Source of the DNA: Escherichia coli
GTDB taxonomy: Bacteria; Pseudomonadota; Gammaproteobacteria; Enterobacterales; Enterobacteriaceae
DNA: 64,000 bases
Reading direction: 5' to 3' (one strand)
Assembly: GCF_001677475.2 (NCBI RefSeq)
Contig: NZ_CP015229.1
A program made the position numbers and the translations under genes. Positions 32,278-47,566 of the stretch are shown piece by piece (the first letter of the stretch is position 1; the number at the start of each line of letters is the position of its first letter). Under the pieces are notes generated by a model, which was not told where the DNA came from, did not search any database, and worked only from the letters and a program-made list of their open reading frames with translations.

Positions 32278-33027
32278 TCAGATGGTCGAAATCAGCATTC
32301 TGTGACCTTCGATATCCAGACGGCGAAAATTCATCCCATAGGCCTGCGCCAGATTTGGCGGCGTGAGCACCTCTTCTCTGCGTCCACTGGCCAGCATTTT
32401 TCCACCTTTTAGCAACCACGCCCGATGCGCATGACGCAATGTGTGGTTGAGATCGTGACTGCTCATCACAATCGCCAGTCCTTGCTGACACAGCGCGCTC
32501 AGAATTTTGTCTAACGCACTTTGTTGCGCAACATCAAGACTGTTCATCGGCTCATCAAGAAGCAGCAATTGGCCTGCGGGATTGGCTTGTGGTGTGATTT
32601 GCAGCACCACCGCAGCAAGACGTACGCGTTGCCATTCACCGCCGGAAAGTTGATTGGTGCTACGTCCGAGTTTGTCATCAAGAGCCAGCGCCCCTGCGAC
32701 ATCATTCAGTAGTTCGGTACGCGTTTTATCGTGCTGATGCAATGTCAGGTAGTGCCAGACCGGCATTGCAAACGGCGGCGTCTGCTGTTGTGAAAGATAG
32801 GCGCGATGCAGCGCGAGTTTTGTTGCGGACCATGCTTCCAGTGGTTGCCCCGCGAACTGAATGCTTCCCTTACCGCTGGTCATTCCGGCCATTCGCGCCA
32901 GTAAGGTACTCTTACCCGCGCCATTCGGCCCCACCAGGTGCAGGATCTCCCCAGCCCGAACCTCGCCAGAAAGCGGCCCCAGGCGGGTAGATTCCGCAAC
33001 ATCCTGTAACTGCATCACAATAGACAT
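32278..33027 (-). CDS. btuD: vitamin B12 ABC transporter ATPase
   Basis: 249-aa ORF; Walker [10 protein letters not shown], signature LSGGEWQR. Confidence 0.95.
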
Positions 33028-33578
33028 TATTTTGCCAACGCCAGTTTAATGCTTTCCATCACAATGGGATCTTCCGGCGTCATATCCGGGGAAAAACGCT
33101 GGATGACCAATCCGTCCCTGCCAACTAAAAATTTCTCAAAATTCCATAAAATATCATCAGGGTACAGCGGTGCACGACCTTTGCTGACCATACGGGCATA
33201 GAATCCGCTCTCTTCCGGCGCGACTGCGGTCGGCGCTGCGGCAATCAATTTTTGATACAGCGGATGGCGTCCTTCGCCATTAACTTCAATCTTACTGAAC
33301 ATCGGAAACGTCACCCCCCATGTGGTGGTACAGTAAGTTTTAATCTCTTCATCGCTGCCCGGTTCTTGTTCCAGAAACTGGTTGCACGGGAATCCCAGCA
33401 CCACAAAACCACGATCGGCCCAGGCTTTCTGAATATTCTCCAACTGCTCATATTGCGGCGTTAAGCCACACTTTGAGGCGACATTGACAATCAACAGCAC
33501 ATTACCAGCGTACTTCTCCAGCGTGGTCACTTCACCGTCGATATCTTTCACTACGGTCGTCAGAATGGAATCTTGCAT
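33027..33578 (-). CDS. btuE: glutathione-peroxidase-like protein
   Basis: 183-aa ORF; GPx-like active site region; between btuC and btuD. Confidence 0.9.
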
Positions 33579-33640
33579 CGTTTCTCCTGGGTGTGGTCAG
33601 TAAAAATCTTAGCTTTTAATCATAGACCGTCTTTTTGCGG

Positions 33641-34621
33641 CTAACGTCCTGCTTTTAACAATAACCAGATAAACACCGGCGCACCTAACGTTGCGGTGAC
33701 CACGCCAATAGGCAGCTCTGCGGCAGCTAATGCCAGGCGCGCTACAACATCGGCCAGCAGCAATGCGCTCGCCCCTGCCAGCGCGCAGCCTGGAAGTAAT
33801 ACGCGATGATCGGTTAAACCACACAGCCGGAGAATATGTGGGATCACCAGACCAATAAAGCCGATAGCACCCGCCAGCGCCACACTGACGCCAACCATCC
33901 AGCCGGTCACTGCGACCAACACATTGCGCCAGAACCACAGGGGTAAACCCAGTTGCCGCGCCGAGATCTCGCCAAGTGCTAACATATTCATCGGCCTGGA
34001 CTGACAACAGATCCACAACAACACGGGGATCAATGCCAGCATCAGCCAGCTTTGCCGCCAGTCTACGCCGCCAAAACCGCCCATCATCCAGTACATCAGC
34101 TGACGCAAATCAACAGAGGTGGAAAAGTAGATAGCCCACGTCATTAGTGCGCTACAGATAATCCCTAATGCAACGCCAGCCAGCAATAACCGACTGGTCG
34201 AAAGATGACGACGGGCGAAACGTAAGAGTATTAAAGTGATGATAAGCGCGCCAGCAATCGCACACAGCCCCAGCGCCCAGTTGGGGAGTTGCCCTTGCCC
34301 AAGCAATACCGCGGCGATAAGCCCCACGCCTGCGCCATTAGAGACGCCAAGTAGTCCAGGTTCTGCCAGAGGATTTTCAAACAACGCCTGCATTACTGCG
34401 CCGGATATAGCCAGCGCCGCACCAACCAGCAATACAGCCAGCGTACGTGGCAGGCGAATTTGCCAGACGAACAGTTCGCCACGAGGAGTAAACCAGTCAC
34501 CTGGCGAGATCCATTGTTCACCGGCGCAAAGGCTTAAGAGAAGCGCCAGCAGCATCAAAACTGACAGGCATAATAACCAGCGAATATTTTGTCGCTGTTG
34601 TTGGCGGGCAAGTGTCAGCAT
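33641..34621 (-). CDS. btuC: vitamin B12 ABC transporter permease
   Basis: 326-aa multi-TM ORF; FecCD-type permease; synteny. Confidence 0.95.
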
Positions 34622-34682: not shown

Positions 34683-34704
34683 GAAAAAAGGCCGCAGAGC
34701 GGCC
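34683..34704 (-). terminator. intrinsic terminator (minus strand) near left prophage boundary
   Basis: Hairpin GGCCGCTCTGCGGCC followed by T6 on the minus strand, about 110 bp downstream of the stop of ORF 34814..35344. Confidence 0.55.
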
Positions 34705-34813
34705 ATAAACACAAACAAAAATCAATAAGTTAGATAATTATCAAAGACTTACAGACACACAAAAACACAGCAAACCACAACAAATAACATAGATGTGGTC
34801 AATTTGTGGATCA

Positions 34814-35344
34814 TCATCCAACAAATTTAGCAACAAATACAGCAACCGCCGCCGTGAAAATGGTTGTGCATACTGGCACAATAATGCCACTCCAACGCCA
34901 CTTCGTATTATCATCAACCTTGTCAAACCGCCGATTCATCTCATCCATAATCTTGTCAAAGCGTTTATCCATCGCTTCGGTAAGCTCACCCTTCAGGCTG
35001 TTAATGTCTGATTTGAGCTGCTCTTTCAGGTTAGCTGTATCAGATTTAAGCTCACCTTTCAGATTCGCAATATCGCATTTAAGATCACCTTTCAGATTCG
35101 CAATGTCTGCTTTGAGCTCACCTTTAACCTCACCAACATCGGCTTTGGTTGAGAGGTTTGTAGTGCGTTCAGCAAGCGTCGCAAGGTCGTTTCTTGTTAG
35201 CGATAAATCACCTTCGAGCCGCTCAATTCGCCTTTCAAGTTTATCTGACATTCCGCCTCCACTATCACCGCCTCCCCCACCGAAAGAGTTGCCAATGTCC
35301 TCACGAATAAGGGTTATGCCATGCTCACTTTTAGCATATGCCAC
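34814..35344 (-). CDS. tail-anchored coiled-coil membrane protein with tandem 11-residue repeats (unknown function)
   Basis: 176-aa ORF; Gly-rich N-terminus, repeats DIANLKGDLKC/DIANLKGELKS/DTANLKEQLKS/DINSLKGELTE, single C-terminal TM helix; abuts upstream ORF. Confidence 0.6.
   Translation of the reverse strand: MAYAKSEHGITLIREDIGNSFGGGGGDSGGGMSDKLERRIERLEGDLSLTRNDLATLAERTTNLSTKADVGEVKGELKADIANLKGDLKCDIANLKGELKSDTANLKEQLKSDINSLKGELTEAMDKRFDKIMDEMNRRFDKVDDNTKWRWSGIIVPVCTTIFTAAVAVFVAKFVG
34993..35128. repeat. tandem ~33-bp direct repeats inside ORF 34814..35344
   Basis: Repeated units of the form CACCTTTCAGATTCGCAATnTCnnnTTTnAGnT visible in sequence (4 copies, degenerate). Confidence 0.7.
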
Positions 35345-35758
35345 TCAGATTCCCTCCCAAACTATATATCCTTTGTCTCTTGCCCAACAAACAACTGTGT
35401 GGGCTGTATATGTGGATGTGAAGCCGCAATAAGAACATGACACTTCATACCGAGTATTGTAGATGTTAATGGGCTCGTTCTCCTTGTGTATGGGAGTGAC
35501 ATATTCCCAATCATTTGAATCATCATAATCATCAAGTTCAGGGTCTGTGCCGTGAACAACCGTATGTGGAATAAACAAATCTAGGCGCCCACACGAGAGA
35601 CAAGAGGTTCTGGCTCCTCTATCTTTAAGGAATTGAATAAATAATTTGGGCGAAATCTGTTGCAGAACCTGCAAATGCCCACGTTCATTATCATTAAGAG
35701 ACCTGTCTGCATATGGAAAATCATCAAATTTAAGAGGCTTCATATAAGGCATCTCCAA
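35345..35758 (-). CDS. zinc-ribbon-containing protein of unknown function
   Basis: 137-aa ORF with CLSCG...CSYCG Cys pairs; overlaps int 3' end and abuts the next ORF (operon-like); alternative start 35743. Confidence 0.5.
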   Translation of the reverse strand: MEMPYMKPLKFDDFPYADRSLNDNERGHLQVLQQISPKLFIQFLKDRGARTSCLSCGRLDLFIPHTVVHGTDPELDDYDDSNDWEYVTPIHKENEPINIYNTRYEVSCSYCGFTSTYTAHTVVCWARDKGYIVWEGI

Positions 35759-36722
35759 GGGGATTAAATCTCACCGCATCCTGCAGGTAATCCGGCGCAA
35801 GATGGGCATAAATCATCGTTGTCTGAATCTTTGCGTGCCCCAGAATTTTCTGGAGCGTCAGAATATTGCCGCCGTTCATCATGAAATGACTGGCGAAGGT
35901 GTGGCGCAGCGCATGAACAGCCTGGCCGTCAGGAACATCAGGTGCGACCGTTTTGATGACATCGCGAACCAATGGATAATCCAGCGTCGGAAACACCAGT
36001 TTCCCGCCCCGTTTTTTGATCTTTTCAAACAGGCTTTCAGAAATAGGAACGGTACGGTTTTTGCTGTTCTTCGTTTTTGAAAAAGTGATTCGACAATGAA
36101 GAACACGGCGCTGCTCCAGTGCCGCTACCTCGCCCCATCGCGCCCCGGTCGACAGAAGGATTTCGACAGCCAGCCGTTCATCGGGATTTTCAGCCAGTGC
36201 ATCCAGCAACTGAACACATTCAGACTTACTCAGATATCCCATTTCGCGCTCGTTAACCTTCATTCCTTTAAGGCCTTGAACGGGGTTATCGTTAAGAAAA
36301 TGGCCGGATGAGATGAGTGCGGTAAACATCGCGCTTAACGCCCCAATCTCTCGATTTATGGTGCTGGGCTGTATCCCCTGCTCTATCCTGGACACACGTA
36401 GCTCGGTGAGCATCGTTGTATTAAGTTTATGCACGCACGGGTCATCCATTGCCTCACTCAAGCGCAGCAATTTAAGGCGCGTGTTATGCCCTGACTTCAT
36501 TAGCTGGCCGTGGTATTTCCACCACAAGTCAATAAGCACCGACAGCGGACGGCGATCAATGGAGTTTCCTTTCCACTCATTGTTATGCTGTTGCGCCAGC
36601 ACCCACCGCTCATATAAAACTGCATCCGATTTCGTTTTAAATTTTTTGCGAATGCGTTTGCCTTTACGCCCCTCCGGGCGCATGTCAAGAAGATACCCTC
36701 CCGGAATTGATTTTATGCTCAT
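35730..36722 (-). CDS. tyrosine integrase, P2 Int-like
   Basis: ORF 35730..36872; start set at internal Met (MSIKSIPGGYLLDMRPEGRKGKRIRKKF) by resemblance to P2 Int N-terminus; C-terminal catalytic region TGARWGE...HALRHTFASHFMMNGG...LGH...IYAH. Confidence 0.9.
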   Translation of the reverse strand: MSIKSIPGGYLLDMRPEGRKGKRIRKKFKTKSDAVLYERWVLAQQHNNEWKGNSIDRRPLSVLIDLWWKYHGQLMKSGHNTRLKLLRLSEAMDDPCVHKLNTTMLTELRVSRIEQGIQPSTINREIGALSAMFTALISSGHFLNDNPVQGLKGMKVNEREMGYLSKSECVQLLDALAENPDERLAVEILLSTGARWGEVAALEQRRVLHCRITFSKTKNSKNRTVPISESLFEKIKKRGGKLVFPTLDYPLVRDVIKTVAPDVPDGQAVHALRHTFASHFMMNGGNILTLQKILGHAKIQTTMIYAHLAPDYLQDAVRFNPLGDALYEAS

Positions 36723-36771
36723 TCGTGAAACCCCAGCGTTACAAGACCACCATGCCCCCAGCGCTCCATGA

Positions 36772-37083
36772 TTAGCCGGGCTGTGTGCCAGTCTTGCGGG
36801 GTTTTTGAGAAGGCGATGTGCTTTTTGGCCCATCAGGGGAGAGAGACGGACTGATCTGCCCAGCAGCCTCATTTGTTTCGTTACTCATCAACCACGTGGT
36901 GTATTTTTTAAAGTTCGGATGCATTGTGATTTTCAGTAAAACCTCCGTCCCCACACCTCTAATACCAGTCTCATATTGCTTAACTGTACCAACCGCAATA
37001 CCTATTGAATCCGCGAACTTTGCCTGGCTAAGTCCCTCAGATTCTCGAATTGCTTTTAGCTTCTTTGATATCTCTATTGACAT
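36772..37083 (-). CDS. P2 C-type immunity repressor (HTH, no peptidase domain)
   Basis: ORF 36772..37155; start set at MSIEISKK (ATG 37081-37083, AGG RBS); HTH plus motif KYTTWLMSNE...GQISPSL resembling P2 C. Confidence 0.75.
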   Translation of the reverse strand: MSIEISKKLKAIRESEGLSQAKFADSIGIAVGTVKQYETGIRGVGTEVLLKITMHPNFKKYTTWLMSNETNEAAGQISPSLSPDGPKSTSPSQKPRKTGTQPG

Positions 37084-37178
37084 GGTGTGCACCTGAATAC
37101 TATATTGGTTATCAGTTGAGTACCACTTGACGCCACAAAAAGCCACAAATAGCACCAGATTGAATAGGTTATCACATC
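37084..37178. promoter_or_regulatory. divergent early promoter/operator region (repressor vs cox-like operon)
   Basis: Intergenic between divergent C-like and cox-like genes; GGTTATCA repeated at 37107..37114 and 37167..37174; TTGACG -35-like element. Confidence 0.5.
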
Positions 37179-37457
37179 ATGGCAAAAGTCCTGAACACAT
37201 ACGAACAAGCGGATTTTGAGCGTTTGGCGGCGTTCTACCCATACCGTGATGAGCATGGGTTACCTGTGCTTGAAGAAAGCCTGGAAGATTACGCGAAACG
37301 CACGAATCAAAGCATTCTTGCGGTAAGAAGGCAGGCCGACAGATCAGTAATCCCCGTCACCCAAGAAGGAAGAAACACAAAACGCAAAGTAAACCTTTTC
37401 GCAATATTCCTGAAAACCATCAGGAGCGCAGAGAAATACGTGCAGATGACAAAATAA
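37179..37457 (+). CDS. Cox/Apl-position early protein (putative excisionase/transcriptional switch)
   Basis: 92-aa ORF, first gene of rightward early operon opposite the repressor; function assigned by position only. Confidence 0.4.
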   Translation: MAKVLNTYEQADFERLAAFYPYRDEHGLPVLEESLEDYAKRTNQSILAVRRQADRSVIPVTQEGRNTKRKVNLFAIFLKTIRSAEKYVQMTK

Positions 37458-37471
37458 CGAGGTGTAATTTT

Positions 37472-37810
37472 ATGCTGAAGCAACGCCATAATTTTCGTAC
37501 CGGAACGGAACGCCACGCTAACCGTTTCGCTACCAGTGCATCACGTAGTAACTCCCGCTACAGCCTGAGCGAAACACACGCTACACCTGATGGCCATCCC
37601 GTAAAACAAATTGGTGAACACACCTGGCTGATTGAGAAAGCTGGAATCGTGGTTCACAGATGCCAACGCAACCCATTTACCGGAAACCGCATTTTTGCTC
37701 TGAGCAACGGCGACACTCAGTTTGGACAGGATTTCACATTGTACGAAGCACTTCGCACGGTTGATCGTCTGCTTCGCGGGCAAAGTTTTATTAAACAGAC
37801 TGATTTATAA
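37472..37810 (+). CDS. phage early protein, unknown function
   Basis: 112-aa ORF in early operon, same strand, short intergenic spacing. Confidence 0.5.
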   Translation: MLKQRHNFRTGTERHANRFATSASRSNSRYSLSETHATPDGHPVKQIGEHTWLIEKAGIVVHRCQRNPFTGNRIFALSNGDTQFGQDFTLYEALRTVDRLLRGQSFIKQTDL

Positions 37811-40378: not shown

Positions 40379-40768
40379 ATGATTGACGCTCATGACTTCA
40401 CAAGATGGGTGCGCACACAGGACACCCGTCTGGCTCCCGTTCTTCAGGGATTATTTGATCTTTACATCCGTGGTCGTGACAACAGAGCACGCACTACAAA
40501 ACCGGAGAATGCGGACACCCTTTATTTCACAGTAGACGACTGCTACCGCGTGGACTTCACACCACACGGGCTGGCGTTGCACTGCCTGACACCACACGGC
40601 GAATCACTGCTGGCGTATTACGACTCCCCGGCCTCCGTATTTGCGGCAATGCTGGCGCATCGCACTGCTGGCGGGTGTGCCTCGCTGAGTGAATACACCG
40701 CTGAATTTAACCGCCTTTCCGCCATCTTCTCGCAGGAGTGGCAGCGCGTGACGGGATACCAGCCATGA
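40379..40768 (+). CDS. phage early protein, unknown function
   Basis: 129-aa ORF; stop overlaps gpA start (ATGA). Confidence 0.5.
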   Translation: MIDAHDFTRWVRTQDTRLAPVLQGLFDLYIRGRDNRARTTKPENADTLYFTVDDCYRVDFTPHGLALHCLTPHGESLLAYYDSPASVFAAMLAHRTAGGCASLSEYTAEFNRLSAIFSQEWQRVTGYQP

Positions 40769-43605
40769 GTGAGTTTGCATGGAGCTGGAATGAACCACGG
40801 CCAGCCATTGATCCGGCCAGATTTACGGAGCGCAGGCAGGAAACTGAAACCGACCTGCAACGCGCCATCCGTTACTACCTTGAGGCAGACAAAAGGGCAC
40901 AGGAAGAACAGGAAGCGAAGGAAGAAGCCTTTTTCGCACAATCCACCGTGGGTAAAAAACTCATGGCATCCCTTGAGGAAGCCGGACAGCGTGAAAAGCT
41001 GGCACAGAGCATCATCAGTAAGCGCCGGGCAACAGAACAAGACACGGTAGCCCGTGCCTTTGCCACACTAAAGGCACTACCTGTTTATCTGCGTGAACCA
41101 CTGAGCCGCCACCTCTCTTTCCTGCGCAAAAAACAGGAAGCCGATCGCCGGAAAGGCAAAAAGAGCTGGCAGGCGGAACGCTATGCACGCGGAACCCTGC
41201 GCAAAATATTCGAACGTCTGGACCGCACCGACAGCCGCTGGCTGACACCGGGTTATCGCGCCCTTGCCGGACGCGAACGCCTGGACGATTTGCTTTACCT
41301 GCCGCAGCTCAACAAACACCAGATACAGACGCTGGCCACCATGACAGCGGCGATGTTCAGCAGCACCTTCGAAAAACTCTGCGATGGCTTTGGCGCGACT
41401 GATGGCGAGCTGACCATGGATGTAACGCTGAAGGCGTATCAGATGCTGGCCCGCATGGCGTTACACCTGCACGCCATGCCTCCGCATTATGACGTACTGA
41501 CAACAGACAAAGACCGGAGGAACGAACCAGACACAGAACTGCTGCCGGGCGCAATCCTTCGCCTGACCTGTGCGGAATGGTGGAAACGCAAACTGTGGCT
41601 GTTACGTTGCGAGTGGCGGGAAGAACAACTCCGAGCCGCCTGTCTGGTTTCCAGAAAAACATCGCCCTATCTGAGCCAGGACGCGTTAAGCGAGTTTCGC
41701 GCACAGCGCGAGAAAACACGCGATTTCCTGAAAAGTTTCATGCTGGAAAATGAAGACGGGTTCACGATTGATCTCGAGACGGTGTATTACGCGGGAGTAA
41801 GTAACCCGGTTCACCGTAAGGCAGAAATGATGGCCACCATGAAGGGACTGGAACTTCTGGCCGAAGCCCGTGGCGACAGAGCGGTGTTTCTGACCGTCAC
41901 CTGCCCGTCAAAATACCACGCAACAACGGAGAACGGTCATCCGAACCCCAAATGGAACGGGGCCACCATGCGCGACTCCAGCGATTACCTGGTTAACACG
42001 TTTTTTGCGGCGGTCCGCAAAAAACTGAACCGCGACGGCCTGCGCTGGTATGGCATCCGCACGGTGGAGCCTCACCATGACGGCACTGTGCACTGGCATA
42101 TGATGGTCTTTGCACATCCGGACGAGATTGAAACCATCGTGTCCCACGTCTGCGATATTGCCATTCAGGAGGACCGCCACGAGCTGGGCGATGACATAAC
42201 TCCGCGTTTTAAGGCGGAGTATGTCGACGGCTCAAAAGGCACACCAACCAGCTACATCGCCACCTACATCGGAAAGAACTTGGACAGCCGCGCCGTGGAT
42301 GGCATCGACCCGAAAACGGGCAAGCCACGCGTTGACCACGAAACCGGAAAATCAATGGCCGAGAGCGTGGAGCGCGCCATCGGCTGGGCGCGCCTTCACC
42401 GGGTCCGTCAGTTCCAGTTCTTTGGCATCCCCTCCCGTCAGGTGTGGCGTGAACTGCGCCGCCTTGCCAGCCAGATGGCACGCAATCCGGAAGGCCCGCA
42501 ACGGCTGAAAGATGATGCAATGGATGCGGTACTCGCTGCCGCCGATGCCGGGTGTTTTGCCACCTACATTGAAAAACAGGGTGGCGTGCTTGTTCCACGC
42601 AAGGACTACCTGATTCGCACCGCCTACGACCTCGCAGATGAGCTGAACGATTACGGCGAACAGAGCGTACAGATTTACGGGATCTGGTCACCACTCATCG
42701 GGGAATCCTCCCGTGTGTGCACGCATCCGGATAACTGGAAGTTGGTAAGACGTAAACCAGAACCGGAAGACAACGCCCACGAAAATGGTTTTGACCTTCA
42801 GGGCGGCCCTGCCGCCCCTTGGACTCGTGGCAATAACTGTCCCCGTGTACAGGAAACGGACAATAACGGGACAGAACTGCCGGAAGAACGGCCAGCACCG
42901 TGGCCGCAGCTCCCTGACGGCGTTGAAGTGAACGAATGGATGCGCTCACTGAAACAGCACGAACGCCGGGCGCTGATGCGTTCGCTTCGTGACAAACAGG
43001 CAAAAAACAGCAGTGATGAAATGCAGAGCTGGACACAGAGCCGCAAACAGCAGCGGCCTTTGCCTGATAACCACGAATTACTCGCTAAAGAATGGCGGGA
43101 GTCTGCTGAATCTCTCGGCCTGCATATCGGTGAACAACAGATGCAGCACCTGTTACGGGGCGGCAGCCTGTACGTTGACGGCAGCATCATTGCACCGCAG
43201 GGATTTGAAATTGTACGCAAACCGGATACCCGCCCGGACAGCCGAATCACGCAGCTCTGGCAGCGCCTGAGCCGTAATCATGGCGTAAGCAGCACGGAGA
43301 TCCGCCATAACCCGGTCGCCAGCTATCTGGCACAGCTGGGGGCATCAGACCCTGAAGTCGCCGCACGCCTGGCATCCACACTTCAGCAGGACCAGAACAC
43401 CATGAAAACACCCGTTACCGTGCTTTCTGACATGCTGCGCGCCATCCGCGACGCAGAGCACGCACAGAGAATCAGTGAAACCACTGAACGCGCCCGCCGC
43501 AAAGCAGACCTGCTGCGGGGTGGCCTGACCAGTGGAAACAAAAAACAGACAGAAACGGGACTCATGAATCCCGTAAATGAGCAAAAAACGCGCAGCGATA
43601 TATGA
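40765..43605 (+). CDS. rolling-circle replication initiator, P2 gpA-like, with long C-terminal extension
   Basis: ORF 40738..43605; start set at ATG 40765 (MSEFAWSW); HWHMMVF and ATYIGKN motifs typical of gpA-family nicking proteins; 946 aa. Confidence 0.8.
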   Translation: MSEFAWSWNEPRPAIDPARFTERRQETETDLQRAIRYYLEADKRAQEEQEAKEEAFFAQSTVGKKLMASLEEAGQREKLAQSIISKRRATEQDTVARAFATLKALPVYLREPLSRHLSFLRKKQEADRRKGKKSWQAERYARGTLRKIFERLDRTDSRWLTPGYRALAGRERLDDLLYLPQLNKHQIQTLATMTAAMFSSTFEKLCDGFGATDGELTMDVTLKAYQMLARMALHLHAMPPHYDVLTTDKDRRNEPDTELLPGAILRLTCAEWWKRKLWLLRCEWREEQLRAACLVSRKTSPYLSQDALSEFRAQREKTRDFLKSFMLENEDGFTIDLETVYYAGVSNPVHRKAEMMATMKGLELLAEARGDRAVFLTVTCPSKYHATTENGHPNPKWNGATMRDSSDYLVNTFFAAVRKKLNRDGLRWYGIRTVEPHHDGTVHWHMMVFAHPDEIETIVSHVCDIAIQEDRHELGDDITPRFKAEYVDGSKGTPTSYIATYIGKNLDSRAVDGIDPKTGKPRVDHETGKSMAESVERAIGWARLHRVRQFQFFGIPSRQVWRELRRLASQMARNPEGPQRLKDDAMDAVLAAADAGCFATYIEKQGGVLVPRKDYLIRTAYDLADELNDYGEQSVQIYGIWSPLIGESSRVCTHPDNWKLVRRKPEPEDNAHENGFDLQGGPAAPWTRGNNCPRVQETDNNGTELPEERPAPWPQLPDGVEVNEWMRSLKQHERRALMRSLRDKQAKNSSDEMQSWTQSRKQQRPLPDNHELLAKEWRESAESLGLHIGEQQMQHLLRGGSLYVDGSIIAPQGFEIVRKPDTRPDSRITQLWQRLSRNHGVSSTEIRHNPVASYLAQLGASDPEVAARLASTLQQDQNTMKTPVTVLSDMLRAIRDAEHAQRISETTERARRKADLLRGGLTSGNKKQTETGLMNPVNEQKTRSDI

Positions 43606-43650
43606 AGCGCGCACAAAACAGGCAAAAACGGGATTTTAGAATCCCGTAAA
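43554..43650. promoter_or_regulatory. twin palindromic operator-like sites flanking the putative parM promoter
   Basis: AACGGGACTCATGAATCCCGTAAA at 43554..43577 and AACGGGATTTTAGAATCCCGTAAA at 43627..43650, each an inverted repeat ACGGGA-N8-TCCCGT; TATAT between them. Confidence 0.5.
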
Positions 43651-43681
43651 CGATTAATTAATCAACATAAGGAAAAGCGAC

Positions 43682-44641
43682 ATGAAAATTTGTATCGACG
43701 ACGGCTCCACCAACATCAAGCTGGCATGGACTGAGAACGGCGAACGCCGCAACGCCATCAGCCCGAACAGCTTCAAGTCGGAATGGTCTGCGCCGTTCGG
43801 TGGCACGCAGCCCGCGAACTACATGCTTGATGGCGTGCGCTATGGTTTTGATCCGGTCAGCGATCGCTTTGTCCAGACGACCGACACGCAATACCAGTAC
43901 AGCGATGTGAATGTCATTGCCATTCATCACGCGCTGGTCAAATCAGGCATCACGCCACAGGAGGTGGATGTGGTTGTCACCCTGCCACTGAGCGAGTATT
44001 TCGACACAAACGCACAGCCGGACATGGCCAACATCAACCGCAAAAAAGCGAACGTTATGCGCCCGGTGGAGTACCAGAACGGCGAAGCATTCACTATCCG
44101 TAACGTGCGGGTTATGCCTGAATCCATTCCGGCTGGCTTTAAGGCACTGGCTGACATGAGTCCGTTTGAATCCCTGCTGATTGTAGATTTGGGCGGAACC
44201 ACGCTGGATGTGGCAAAGGTTCAGGGGCAACTGGCAGGTATCAGCCAGGTGTTTTGCGATCCACACGTAGGCGTTTCTCTGATGGCCGATGCCGTACTGT
44301 CGGTGATGGCCACTAACGGTATGCGCACCAGTCACCACATCGCCAATACCATTATCGAACATCGCCATAATGAAGCCTGGCTGCGCCAGCACATCCACAA
44401 TGACGCGCATTACGCCAGCCTGATGGAGGTTATTCGTGAAAAGGAAGAAACACTGAAACAACGCGTGATCCGCGCGCTGGCGGGTTTTTCGGGTTACGGG
44501 CGGGTGATGGTTGTCGGTGGAGGGGCGGAGATTGTGGCACCCGCTATCCGCGAAGCCTGCGGAGTTCATGCGACTTTCATCGCGGACGGGGTGCCACAGT
44601 TTGCTCTGGTTAATGGGCTGTACGCAATGGACAAGGAGTAA
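43682..44641 (+). CDS. actin-like ATPase, ParM/StbA family
   Basis: 319-aa ORF; motifs DDGSTNIKL, SPNSFK, YSDVNVIAIHHAL, MPESIPAG, DLGGTTLD, VVGGGAEI align with plasmid R1 ParM as I recall it. Confidence 0.85.
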   Translation: MKICIDDGSTNIKLAWTENGERRNAISPNSFKSEWSAPFGGTQPANYMLDGVRYGFDPVSDRFVQTTDTQYQYSDVNVIAIHHALVKSGITPQEVDVVVTLPLSEYFDTNAQPDMANINRKKANVMRPVEYQNGEAFTIRNVRVMPESIPAGFKALADMSPFESLLIVDLGGTTLDVAKVQGQLAGISQVFCDPHVGVSLMADAVLSVMATNGMRTSHHIANTIIEHRHNEAWLRQHIHNDAHYASLMEVIREKEETLKQRVIRALAGFSGYGRVMVVGGGAEIVAPAIREACGVHATFIADGVPQFALVNGLYAMDKE

Positions 44642-44645
44642 ACCA

Positions 44646-44957
44646 ATGACGACACCAACCAGACGGATAAGTTTCTATCTGAAGCCTGCGGCCGTCAAGA
44701 ACGAAAGCGAAGCATGCGCCTGGCTGGACAGCCTTACACCAGAAGCCCGCAAAAGCGGCCAACGCGTGGCTTTTCTGGCCGGGCTGGCACTTCTGAAAAT
44801 GAATCCGGCAGAGGCTTACCGACTGGCTGCATGGGCTGACGATGAGGCGTTATCAGTGACACAAACCAGGACAGAATGCCCCGCGTCACAGCCAGTATCA
44901 ACCGCACAGATAACCAGTCAGATGGCCGGAAATATCCGGGCGTTATTTCCCGAATAA
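44646..44957 (+). CDS. ParR-like centromere-binding/repressor protein
   Basis: ATG 44646 with GGAG RBS, 103 aa; RRISFYLKP...AWLDSLTPEARKSGQRVAFLAGLAL resembles R1 ParR N-terminal RHH region; immediately downstream of parM-like gene. Confidence 0.7.
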   Translation: MTTPTRRISFYLKPAAVKNESEACAWLDSLTPEARKSGQRVAFLAGLALLKMNPAEAYRLAAWADDEALSVTQTRTECPASQPVSTAQITSQMAGNIRALFPE

Positions 44958-44962
44958 CACAA

Positions 44963-44990
44963 CATCAGGGCGCATCCGCCCTGATGACTT
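44963..44990 (+). terminator. putative terminator after parR-like gene
   Basis: 10-bp stem CATCAGGGCG/CGCCCTGATG with 4-nt loop, followed by short T-rich stretch. Confidence 0.4.
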
Positions 44991-45020
44991 TAATCCGGGA
45001 ACATAAACAAGGGGGACACA

Positions 45021-45356
45021 ATGCAACACATTGACAGAGAAAAAGCGCAGCGACTGATTGAGCGAATGGAAGCGCTGGCGAAAGAAGAAAATGTCAACAT
45101 CCAAAAAATAGCTGAATGTGGCCAGATAGTTCTTCGTCGTGAAAAAGACATCAAGCAACTGATGTCTGGCGAAATCAGCAAAACATGGACTTCAGGCAAG
45201 AAGACGATTTATTGCAGCTTCTGCAATAAATCCCAGCACGAAGTCATAAAGGTGATTGCCGGACCGTCTGTTTACATCTGCAATGAGTGCGTGGATTTGT
45301 GCAATGAAATTATCAGAAGAGAAGTGACAGACCATGAAGAAAAAACGCATGAATGA
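45021..45356 (+). CDS. ClpX-type C4 zinc-binding-domain protein (novel N-terminal helical region fused to ClpX-like ZBD)
   Basis: 111-aa ORF, GGGGGA RBS; residues [38 protein letters not shown] closely match E. coli ClpX N-domain (about 32 of 39 residues by my recollection); no AAA+ module. Confidence 0.8.
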
Positions 45357-45943
45357 CGAATTTGACGGCTTTTAATTTTATCGGGGCACACTGTCTCCCC
45401 CCGCACGAGGAAAACACGATGAAAAAATACGAATACATGCTAATGAAAGAAGCACTGCGGGCTGGTCTGGCTCCCTGTCCTGTATCCGTAGAAGCTGTTG
45501 TTGGGAACACGATTTTCCGAACGCTGCGAAATCGCGTATCCGTGAAGATGATTCACCAACCACCCAAATCTACCAGCATGATCTATCTGCCGCTGCCCGA
45601 GGCTATCAAACTTATGCGTTCGCTGAAATTTGCGATTTGGATGCAGACACAACTCAACAAAGCGGTGCAAAACACCTTCGTTAAGAAACTGATGCCGGAG
45701 CTTGCTGCCAGATGTGCAAAATGTACCAGACCCGCACTTCAATTTGATCTGTCATTGATTCAACAAGCTACGGAGGCAGAACTGTACCGCCTGTCACCTC
45801 TCCATGATGTTCACACGGAAGCCTCAGAAATGTTCCGGCTCATGTTTCAATTTAATTTTGCCGTTCGACGCACACGCGTTCAGGTCAATCGCATGATGCA
45901 GGCGCAGGAAGAGCTGACGCAACACAAAGGAGGCAACCAGTGA
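45353..45943 (+). CDS. hypothetical protein, translationally coupled to ZBD gene
   Basis: ATG 45353 overlaps upstream stop (ATGA); alternative start ATG 45416 with GAGGAA RBS; no recognisable motif. Confidence 0.55.
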
Positions 45944-46464
45944 GCAAGATTGACTATCAGGCATTACGCGAACGCTATTCACCTGCGCCAGTACCGAAAT
46001 GCCCTATTTGCGGCGAGGAAATGTCAATTCAGCGAATATCTGGAGCACAGGTTGTTTATGCCTGCTCCGGTTATGGTGATGATGGAGATTTCAAAATTGG
46101 TCGAACTCTTGCCGACGAACATTATGAAAAATCGCGCGTAACAGTGTTGGATGTCGGGGATCCTGAAGTATTGGCGCTACTTGATTGGCTGGAAACTAAA
46201 GACAACCGAATCGCTGAACTGGAAAAAATCGCCACTGACTATGCACTTAAATTCCAGAAAGCACAGGACGCATTAAAGCATGCCGCTTTGCTGCATAGCC
46301 GGACGGCGCAACAAACAAATAATTTTGCAGTATCGCTTCCGGACATAAGCGAATATTTCATTAATGACGTATTTCAGCCCTTGCGATACGAGCGGGATGT
46401 TGAAAGAGCCATCATAAAGGCTGGCGGAAAAGCATTGTGGCAGGAGAAACACGACGACAGATAA
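45940..46464 (+). CDS. hypothetical protein with N-terminal Cys-rich (zinc-ribbon-like) segment
   Basis: GTG start overlapping upstream stop (GTGA) with AGGAGG RBS; CPICGEE...YACSG; 174 aa. Confidence 0.55.
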   Translation: MSKIDYQALRERYSPAPVPKCPICGEEMSIQRISGAQVVYACSGYGDDGDFKIGRTLADEHYEKSRVTVLDVGDPEVLALLDWLETKDNRIAELEKIATDYALKFQKAQDALKHAALLHSRTAQQTNNFAVSLPDISEYFINDVFQPLRYERDVERAIIKAGGKALWQEKHDDR

Positions 46465-46516
46465 AAATAACACCTGATCTCCCTCAAACCAGGGCGATAA
46501 TCGCGCATCGCCCTGC

Positions 46517-46543
46517 TGCACAATAGTGCACAAATTTGCACAA
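46517..46543. repeat. three TGCACAA direct repeats at exact 10-bp phasing
   Basis: TGCACAA at 46517, 46527 and 46537; helical-turn periodicity suggests protein binding on one DNA face. Confidence 0.6.
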
Positions 46544-46614
46544 TTTTTTTGAACGACTTTTTGCCCTTCCGGCCCGCGTGGCGGCTGGATCCGTCAAGGA
46601 TCCGTGCGTGCACA

Positions 46615-46630
46615 AAAAAACGCGTTTTTT
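46615..46630. other. perfect palindrome AAAAAACGCGTTTTTT inside phage non-coding block
   Basis: Seen directly; preceded by GGATCCGT direct repeats at 46587 and 46598 and followed by G-rich segment. Confidence 0.6.
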
Positions 46631-46914
46631 CTGCGCGCAGGTGACGGGGGAACAGCCCGCGTTTCAGGGGGTAAATAGCGTTCCCTTAACGATGTCGCAG
46701 CGACACGACAGAATGGCCGTATCGCTCACGCTGAGCGTGAAAAATACGTGAGGGATTCTGATTTGATGGGGTGAAAGGTAAGGCCGTCAAAATCGCACTG
46801 AGGCGGCGAGAACATGCAGTCAGCGCGGTGGGATTGTGTAGAGTCTGGCCGTCGATGATAGCGATAAGTCGGAAGATGTCGTGAAATTATCTGATTGATA
46901 CGGGAGCTGGAGAG

Positions 46915-46941
46915 CCGGGGCATAAATTTTTTATGCCCCGG
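46915..46941. other. perfect 12-bp-stem hairpin CCGGGGCATAAA-ttt-TTTATGCCCCGG
   Basis: Seen directly; no flanking U tract on either strand so not a classical intrinsic terminator. Confidence 0.6.
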
Positions 46942-47041
46942 CGAAGCAGCAGACAAGCGAAGCGCGTCAGTGATGCGGCACCTTGCCGACCACACTTCAT
47001 AAGTGCAAAATACGAGCAAAGAAATCAATGGAGGCTGTTTT

Positions 47042-47566
47042 ATGGTCATTAATTACAAGCAGTTACGAGAAAAACGAGAGCAGGTAAAGGAAAGTTTTCG
47101 CCGCAATGAAGATCTGACCCCGCTTGTACACCTTGCCCAGGGAATTGTTGATGCTTATGAAATCTCTCTGGAGCTGCCATCACAGACATGGACGGATAGC
47201 GACGGTAATCGCCAGCATTACGTTTCATGCGGACTGGAAACAACTGAAGGGTTTCGCAGAATGCCTTTATCTCAGATTCCTGCCGCTACCCCCAAAGCAA
47301 GGGGCGGCAATGATGAGCGAAAACTGATTTTCAGCATTGAGACAGTGGTTGACGACACACCTGGCGAAGTCGCGTTCGTGCATACTCCTCTTTCGATCGC
47401 AATGTATAACGATGAAATACAGGTTCGCGTTAATAATAATATCGTGCCACTTAAAGAAGGTAATTCACCATACACCACCGTTTGTGAAGCCATTCAATAT
47501 TACGTTCTCTCTGAAATTGATAATCTCAAGCCTGACGGCACCCAGAAAATGGTTCAACTCTGGTAA
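47042..47566 (+). CDS. hypothetical protein (orphan gene between non-coding block and portal gene)
   Basis: ATG 47042 with GGAGG RBS (ORF track 47003..47566); followed by strong terminator. Confidence 0.55.
   Translation: MVINYKQLREKREQVKESFRRNEDLTPLVHLAQGIVDAYEISLELPSQTWTDSDGNRQHYVSCGLETTEGFRRMPLSQIPAATPKARGGNDERKLIFSIETVVDDTPGEVAFVHTPLSIAMYNDEIQVRVNNNIVPLKEGNSPYTTVCEAIQYYVLSEIDNLKPDGTQKMVQLW

Follow-up and report, generated by a model that had tools for sequence, protein, structure and literature searches.

An in-frame 33-bp tandem repeat of varying copy number in a P2-like prophage gene of Escherichia coli for a putative tail-anchored stalk protein

Does a tandem repeat inside a prophage gene lengthen and shorten the encoded protein, and on what time scale? 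This question is raised by a 64,000-nucleotide (nt) stretch of Escherichia coli DNA (NCBI RefSeq assembly GCF_001677475.2, contig NZ_CP015229.1), which we refer to as the window. A sequence-only reading of the window had pointed to near-identical repeats of about 33 bp at 34993-35128, which were taken to encode the coiled-coil repeats of a membrane protein and to be able to vary in number, and with them the length of the protein's stalk. All coordinates are those of the whole 64,000-nt stretch, and the gene and its two repeat arrays lie on the minus strand. Our results confirmed the observation and supported its interpretation, with refinements in strand, extent, hendecad periodicity, a second array, and a slow tempo. 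The 33-bp array is most probably an in-frame variable-number tandem repeat (VNTR), changing rarely, in a P2-like prophage accessory gene for a small tail-anchored stalk protein of the DUF1640/CCDC90-like kind.

Array 1 and its copy number in orthologous alleles

Tandem Repeats Finder reported a sole array at 34981-35125, with a period of 33, 4.4 copies, 73% matches, no indels, and a score of 129. The repeats noticed at 34993-35128 were thus recovered inside a detected period-33 array. The minus-strand open reading frame (ORF) at 34814..35344 was the only sizeable ORF in which the array was in phase. In this frame, the array (array 1) resolved into five units, directly followed by a second, unrelated array (array 2).

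34979..35143, minus strand: array 1, five 33-bp / 11-residue hendecad units, with 2-7 copies in orthologous alleles
35143-35111, minus strand: array 1 unit 1, ADVGEVKGELK
35110-35078, minus strand: array 1 unit 2, ADIANLKGDLK
35077-35045, minus strand: array 1 unit 3, CDIANLKGELK
35044-35012, minus strand: array 1 unit 4, SDTANLKEQLK
35011-34979, minus strand: array 1 unit 5, SDINSLKGELT
34913..34978, minus strand: array 2, two 33-bp units unrelated to array 1, EAMDKRFDKIM and DEMNRRFDKVD, with 22/33 nt in common

The lag-33 identity of array 1 was 91/132, compared with 38.7 +/- 5.4 (maximum 62) in 20,000 codon shuffles (z = 9.6). As in a VNTR, the units are head-to-tail, in-frame DNA units of 11 codons, and they are repeated beyond chance. 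Where residues were identical between units, the codons were also identical in 40 of 62 cases, compared with 27 expected from local codon usage. This excess indicates that the repeat was inherited at the DNA level, as a true duplication and not as a protein pattern alone. The units were 52-85% identical overall. The description "near-identical" held for units 2 and 3, which agreed at 28/33 nt and shared the longest exact in-register run (20 nt), but not for the other pairs, which agreed at 17-23/33 nt. Two short, low-scoring tandem repeats with periods of 10 and 12 and about 2.3 copies were also seen, the first in the intergenic stretch near btuC (34762-34784) and the second in the 3' end of the same gene (34819-34846); both are probably due to chance or composition.

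A search of a protein collection gave 51 clusters (90% identity), in which units were counted from the TKAD neck up to the AMDKRFD motif. Cluster lengths climbed in 11-residue steps, namely 112, 123, 134, 145, and 156 residues for the short form of the protein, which starts at an inner ATG, and correspondingly for the long forms. Two units were present in 3 clusters, three in 7, four in 14, five in 7, six in 3, and seven in 2. A few further clusters had arrays of 11n+4 or 11n+7 residues, to which a stutter or a heptad had been added. Since all array lengths were 11n, 11n+4, or 11n+7, the coiled-coil phase was kept throughout. Array 2 varied too, with one or two units; one unit was found in loci L004, L011, and L013 and in many clusters.

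DNA was retrieved for alleles with two units (L012), three (L005), four (L009), five (the window, L001, L002, and L004), six (L007), and seven (L011 and L013). These alleles differed by exact multiples of 33 bp, all in frame. The gene lay between a P2-type integrase gene and btuC in every retrieved allele with flanks; the two-unit allele is on a 951-bp contig, where the neighbouring ORF alone is visible. Stalk-length variation, as anticipated from the repeats, was therefore found among orthologous alleles at the same int/btuC locus, and a copy number ranging from two to seven across related prophages is clearly not an invariant one.

The alleles also carried traces of the events that separate them. 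Unit 3 of the window was present in two identical copies in the six-unit allele, i.e. as a perfect 33-bp duplication, and in the seven-unit allele L011 that allele's own unit 2 occurred twice without any difference. Unit 2 of the four-unit allele L009 was a perfect chimera: its 5' part matched reference unit 2 and its 3' part matched unit 3, and the crossover can be placed at any point of a 13-nt run common to both. Unit 1 of the three-unit allele was a perfect chimera as well. The crossover points lay in short in-register homologies of ~8-20 nt. Outside the array, the window (five units), L005 (three units), and L012 (two units) were identical at 108/108 and 164/165 nt (272-273/273), and the 1.6 kb upstream of L005 was 99.25% identical to the window. 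Judging from these sequences, the copy-number changes among the two-, three-, and five-unit alleles are recent. At least four distinct four-unit alleles were found, with ADIAHLKGELK, CDIANLKGELK, ADIANLKGELK, or ADIAHLKGDLK as the second unit, and their diversity points to independent deletion events.

The stalk protein and its relation to DUF1640/CCDC90-like proteins

The ORF can be read in a long and a short form, and its product can be divided into the following parts. Residues are numbered according to the short form of 145 amino acids (aa).

34814..35344, minus strand: whole ORF, long form, 176 aa, starting at a GTG that immediately follows the stop codon of the upstream ORF; the coordinates include the stop codon; taken from the ORF list
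34814..35251, minus strand: short form, 145 aa, beginning MSDKLERR, from an inner ATG after GGAGGCGGA; start as in RefSeq for close homologs
35156..35251, minus strand: N-terminal helix, aa 1-32, with heptad-like hydrophobic spacing, in the "head" position
35138..35155, minus strand: neck motif L-S-T-K-A-D, aa 33-38, which fits the DUF1640 beta-layer consensus
34820..34894, minus strand: C-terminal transmembrane anchor (SGIIVPVCTTIFTAAVAVFVAKFV), a hydrophobic stretch preceded by the invariant Trp W118; helix 114-144 in the AlphaFold2 (AF2) model

In array 1, the residues I/V, L, and L at unit positions 3, 6, and 10 formed a stripe of 131-196 degrees on an 11/3 wheel, with Asp and Lys flanking. 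Spectral power was 3.88 at a period of 3.667 and 0.28 at 3.5. With its periodicity peak at 3.67 and not at 3.5, array 1 is predicted to be a hendecad (11/3) coiled coil instead of a heptad one. Within the first 36 residues of the protein, hydrophobic periodicity peaks at 3.5. The AF2 monomer consisted of a helix at 2-111, a break at 112-113, and a helix at 114-144, with a predicted local distance difference test score (pLDDT) of 80 and a predicted template modelling score of 0.31; over the array, the helix was unbroken and pLDDT was 85-93. The hydrophobic C-terminus of 21-25 residues was conserved in all relatives. The protein thus appears as a coiled-coil stalk anchored in the membrane at its C-terminus, as had been read from the sequence at the outset, with hendecad in place of heptad repeats. 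In an alignment of relatives (A1), T35, K36, and D38 were invariant or nearly so and W118 was invariant.

Several lines of comparison relate the protein to the DUF1640 family. In RefSeq, close homologs go by the names "DUF1640 domain-containing" or "CCDC90 family protein". The Pfam CCDC90-like profile (PF07798) matched 12 of 20 aligned relatives at E <= 1e-3, with 6.4e-12 as the best value. A profile built from alignment A1 matched 6h9l_A in the Protein Data Bank (PDB) at E = 1.2e-9 (41 bits), over the neck, the repeats, and the distal stalk, and this alignment set the array units in phase with the four ATKEDIEALRK 11-mers of 6h9l. Human CCDC90B was not matched in the PDB profile search, and the single-sequence PDB search was uninformative (apolipoprotein ApoA-IV at E = 0.018 and 6h9l at E = 0.38). 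In a 2019 paper in Structure, MCUR1, CCDC90B, and the 6H9L protein are reported to share a head-neck-stalk-anchor architecture and to form trimers. DUF1640 comprises integral membrane proteins that occur in both prokaryotes and mitochondria (Hartmann et al. 2016, PMC4786415), and the beta-layer consensus [aliphatic]-A-T-K-[polar]-[DE] is sited at the start of their stalk (PMC4786415). The neck of the window protein, L-S-T-K-A-D, agrees with this consensus with Ser replacing Ala, and a C-terminal transmembrane anchor follows its coiled-coil stalk.

Like human MCUR1, human CCDC90B, and the archaeal 6H9L protein, the window protein is a small membrane-anchored coiled coil with an [aliphatic]-x-T-K-x-D neck, and its stalk ends in a C-terminal transmembrane helix with a Trp ahead of the anchor. 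Unlike them, it lacks a recognisable globular head and is encoded by a temperate phage, beside the integrase gene, and calcium uniporter biology is not implied. In the short form, the 32-residue heptad-like helix is the sole segment before the neck; a Gly-rich extension of 31 residues is possibly translated in addition. We file the protein as a putative divergent, headless DUF1640/CCDC90-like member. From family analogy and the absent signal peptide, we infer that it would be trimeric and tail-anchored, with a cytoplasmic N-terminus. In the literature on DUF1640 in phages, we found domain annotations only (T5-like tail fibre, Liberibacter prophages) and no functional data.

The extension bears on the start of the gene. 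RefSeq coding-sequence limits in L001-L004 use the inner ATG (35251 in the window), which has a Shine-Dalgarno-like GGAGG 4 nt ahead of it. Upstream of this ATG, at 35252-35344 (minus strand), lies an in-frame extension of 31 codons that ends in GGGGGDSGGG. The frame upstream of the inner ATG was open in 11/11 loci, each of which has a start codon that touches or overlaps the upstream ORF's stop. The Gly-rich linker was kept in distant homologs with identities of 36-48%, and the annotation of some of these uses the long form. Because no locus has a break in the frame and the linker persists, the GTG at 35344 may be a real start, giving the 176-aa form, and the annotated short form may be truncated; the same two facts speak against GGGGGDSGGG as a mere Shine-Dalgarno artefact, a reading that was rejected. 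Disrupted forms of the gene were also observed. An IS3-family element was found in the 3' end of the gene in L003 (E. coli 300709, 1730-2943), where it replaces the transmembrane anchor, and clusters P0024, P0029, P0040, and P0047 are truncated or frameshifted forms of the protein. The stalk gene is dispensable in some lineages.

Units would be gained and lost when replication slips between neighbouring units or when these recombine unequally. Each such event would keep the frame and the 11/3 phase, and would make the stalk longer or shorter by ~1.6 nm per unit (11 residues at a helical rise of 0.15 nm) with the fold intact, so that two to seven units would span a difference of ~8 nm in stalk length. 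The stalk may serve as a spacer that tolerates changes in length and keeps the N-terminal end on the cytoplasmic side of the inner membrane, at a fixed distance from it. The use of coiled coils as spacers has been reviewed (PMC5082667).

Tempo of change and rival explanations

The gene was present in 38 of 5,426 complete E. coli genomes. Several points weigh against the reading of array 1 as a VNTR of a DUF1640-like stalk protein. All 36 complete genomes with a match to at least 80% of the gene, which cover several serotypes, had five array 1 units and no 33-bp gap there, and every array 1 allele with another number came from a draft assembly or a metagenome contig. GCA_018336235.1, GCA_019212645.1, and GCA_025788615.2 are examples of the assemblies with such alleles. 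The window protein itself matched PF07798 at 25.8-26.0 bits (E ~1e-5), below the gathering threshold of 33.5 bits. The AF2 monomer is compatible with a stalk, but a monomer model cannot test a trimer or beta-layers, and the oligomeric state, topology, and expression of the protein are deduced rather than observed. A promoter scan found no sigma-70-like promoter directly upstream of the stalk gene on the minus strand, co-transcription with int is drawn from an analogy with P2, and no result here supports a functional importance of stalk length.

The uniform count in 36/36 complete genomes indicates that change is rare per generation and gives no sign of programmed switching. Array 1 is stable within lineages, and its variation is on an evolutionary scale and not a fast switch. 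It is therefore highly improbable that array 1 is a contingency locus, in which a hypermutable array would often gain or lose units among the cells of one clone and bring about programmed phenotypic variation, as phase-variable surface genes do. Two observations would suit such a locus, since copy number varies among alleles that are otherwise ~99-100% identical and some alleles contain perfect duplicated units. Contingency loci of the simple-sequence type do resemble array 1 in that repeat-mediated slippage alters a coding sequence, but theirs are perfect tracts of 1-9 nt with frameshift switching and high rates, whereas array 1 consists of diverged 33-nt units, with no exact in-register run beyond 20 nt in the window. 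Every change in array 1 is in frame, which leaves no on/off switching, and neither a long perfect tract nor a frame shift or expression switch, the marks of a phase-variable locus, was found. The gain and loss of units is instead proposed to be rare, on an evolutionary time scale and without a programmed switch.

The same distribution raises the matter of assembly, since the alleles with other than five units were judged from contigs alone and complete genomes show five only. These alleles are unlikely to be assembly errors, because their chimeric units and junctions carry k-mers (k >=21) that, by de Bruijn inference, are absent from and cannot arise from a five-unit template, because the alleles recur (the three-unit allele on 10 contigs, the four-unit allele on 8, and the six-unit allele on 2, from two different samples), and because even the longest array, of 231 bp, is reachable by read pairs. 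In addition, one of the 36 complete genomes, L004, has one 33-bp unit fewer in array 2. We thus give almost no credence to the view that short-read or metagenome assembly across the repeat produced the copy-number differences.

Two further explanations accept the array and dispute its fold. An 11-residue periodicity is typical of the amphipathic helices of apolipoproteins, late embryogenesis abundant (LEA) proteins, and synucleins, which would lie flat on a membrane or lipid surface, so that copy number would set the area covered. The Pfam match with the best E-value was indeed Apolipoprotein (PF01442), and PDB profile matches to ApoA-IV reached down to 1e-5. The Apolipoprotein match scored 26 bits against a threshold of 90 bits, however, and the hydrophobic face occupies 3 of 11 positions and is flanked by Asp and Lys, which is the core stripe of a coiled coil and not a broad lipid face. 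The conserved TKxD neck and the match to 6h9l, moreover, connect the protein with DUF1640, a trimeric family. A flat lipid-bound helix is thus very unlikely, and apolipoprotein identity was rejected, as the matches reflect the common 11-residue periodicity only.

Alternatively, each unit could hold its own degenerate beta-layer (L-K-x-D-[IV]), which would make the array a stack of alpha/beta modules rather than a continuous hendecad; we consider this unlikely. The phase shared with the 6h9l 11-mers speaks for it, as does K-x-D-[I/T/V] in every unit, at the place where the neck has T-K-A-D-V, and repeated beta-layers do exist in Tcar0761. Like the window protein, Tcar0761 has short tandem A-T-K-x-D repeats in a trimeric coiled coil and belongs to the motif family behind the recognition of DUF1640 (PMC4786415). 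Its repeats have a period of 9 with a beta-layer in each, whereas the window array has a period of 11 with Thr in the first motif only, the consensus Thr being replaced by Leu in units 2-5, and an alpha-helical hendecad is therefore predicted for it. Beta-layers come from insertions of 2 or 6 residues (nonads and hexads), while 11 = 7 + 4 gives an alpha-helical hendecad (PMC4786415). The unbroken AF2 helix over the array also speaks against stacked modules, within the limits of a monomer model.

A continuous hendecad stalk that varies by whole units is of a known and ordinary kind. In-frame repeat length polymorphism is found in streptococcal M and alpha-C proteins and in the stalks of trimeric autotransporter adhesins, where it is ascribed to slippage or unequal recombination. 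Array 1 resembles these in that codon-phased DNA repeats encode structural repeats and alleles differ by whole units, with frame and periodicity kept. It differs in its setting, since those proteins are surface antigens or adhesins under immune or receptor selection, whereas the window protein is prophage-borne and has a predicted tail anchor in the inner membrane, with the stalk on the cytoplasmic side.

The partner gene, the prophage, and the meaning of the array

The stalk gene is flanked on one side by btuE and btuC (33027-34621, minus strand) and on the other by a partner ORF and a P2-type integrase gene, and it lies at the btuC-side end of a P2-like prophage.

35345..35758, minus strand: partner ORF of 132-137 aa, Zn-ribbon-like (CxxC...CxxC), start probably at 35743 (132 aa); phrog_4293 at 8e-30
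L007 3526-4008, L009 3400-3900, L014 1765-2127, L015/L017 3011-3508: the partner in other loci
35730..36872, minus strand: P2-type tyrosine integrase, longest possible ORF (380 aa); Pfam Int_N 2e-28, Phage_integrase 4e-20
34690..34704, minus strand: terminator-like hairpin GGCCGC-TCT-GCGGCC with a T-run, downstream of the stalk gene in host-derived sequence before btuC; a consensus match only

Homologs of the partner had 132 aa and two invariant CxxC pairs, and variants of 160-166 aa had the same motifs. The partner was always located between the integrase and the DUF1640-like gene, and the pair was conserved in L014, L015, and L017. The stop of the partner abuts or overlaps the start of the stalk gene, an arrangement suggestive of translational coupling between the two genes of a module. 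For the partner, the AF2 model (pLDDT 80) had no fold match in the PDB (best Foldseek E 0.83). In another P2-like prophage at the same btuC site (L014, E. coli AR_0128, 1331-2127), a divergent pair was found whose stalk protein has FATKSDV, four 11-mers of another type (LRLEMAESRQS-like), and a transmembrane anchor. The pair was located at btuC in Salmonella and beside the alanine racemase gene in Klebsiella; these placements indicate that it travels with the integrase end of the phage and not with a host site.

In PHROGs, the gene pair fell into phrog_9415 and phrog_4293, families without assigned function. Weak PHROGs matches to spanin, holin, and hemolysin were rejected, as they reflect merely a coiled coil plus a transmembrane segment. 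PADLOC-DB 2.0 gave no defence-system match for the partner and a weak one only for the stalk protein (20 bits, E ~4e-5); a defence role suggested by matches to ZorA, LmuB, and LeoBC was likewise set aside, since these were low-scoring coiled-coil segments only. In the terminator scan, the number of terminators found equalled the shuffle expectation.

The integrases annotated in homologs have 312-330 aa and the window ORF is ~50 codons longer; the true integrase start is probably internal. The 3' end of the integrase ORF overlaps the partner ORF by 14 nt, and related loci go on with a C-type repressor and cox-side genes. The prophage backbone had ~96% identity with the Escherichia phages PhiR44_2 and P88, in neither of which the first ~2.7 kb (34800-37494), with the module, had a counterpart. 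Homology to E. coli genomes without the gene stopped at ~34819, at the last codon of the gene, which places its final Gly and stop codons in sequence common to an unoccupied or differently occupied site. The segment ~34812-34820 is probably the core of the attachment (att) site, and the other end of the prophage seems to lie beyond the window.

Elsewhere in the prophage, the gpA replication gene (40738-43605) is an unusually long ORF (955 aa), followed by an accessory region between gpA and gpQ (40738-47566 overall) with a ParM-like actin ATPase (43682-44641) and an Ead/Ea22-like protein (45940-46464). The ORFs at 45353-45943 and 47003-47566 in this region had no Pfam or PADLOC match. In P2-like prophages, the interval from gpA to gpQ is the described accessory and defence hotspot, with loci such as old/tin (Rousset et al. 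2022, PMC9122126). The module was excluded as part of this known hotspot, as it occupies a different locus, between the integrase and the prophage end. Like the old/tin "moron" loci, it is variable accessory cargo of E. coli P2-like prophages, and its int-proximal position allows expression in the lysogen; unlike them, it lies at another site and has no PADLOC match beyond coiled-coil noise.

By analogy with P2, the stalk gene would be co-expressed with the Zn-ribbon partner and the integrase from a lysogenic promoter. A bolder proposal is that the Zn-ribbon and stalk proteins form a conserved, integrase-linked, lysogen-expressed module of P2-like phages in which the stalk is an adjustable ruler, and that the recurrent gain and loss of 1.6-nm units is selected and not neutral. 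We regard this proposal as quite unlikely. If true, it could tune the reach of, for example, a membrane-tethered sensor or an exclusion factor against competing phages, and no earlier role would have been assigned to any MCUR1/CCDC90 family member from prokaryotes or viruses.

Both the present instance of repeat length polymorphism in a fibrous protein and the two-gene module appear to be undescribed. The module is a conserved and uncharacterised pair of genes that P2-like prophages carry next to their integrase gene in E. coli, Salmonella, Citrobacter, and Klebsiella. The alleles also provide a natural series of two to seven hendecad units in nearly identical backgrounds, which is useful for testing stalk length in a membrane protein of the DUF1640/CCDC90 type, a family that includes human MCUR1 and CCDC90B.

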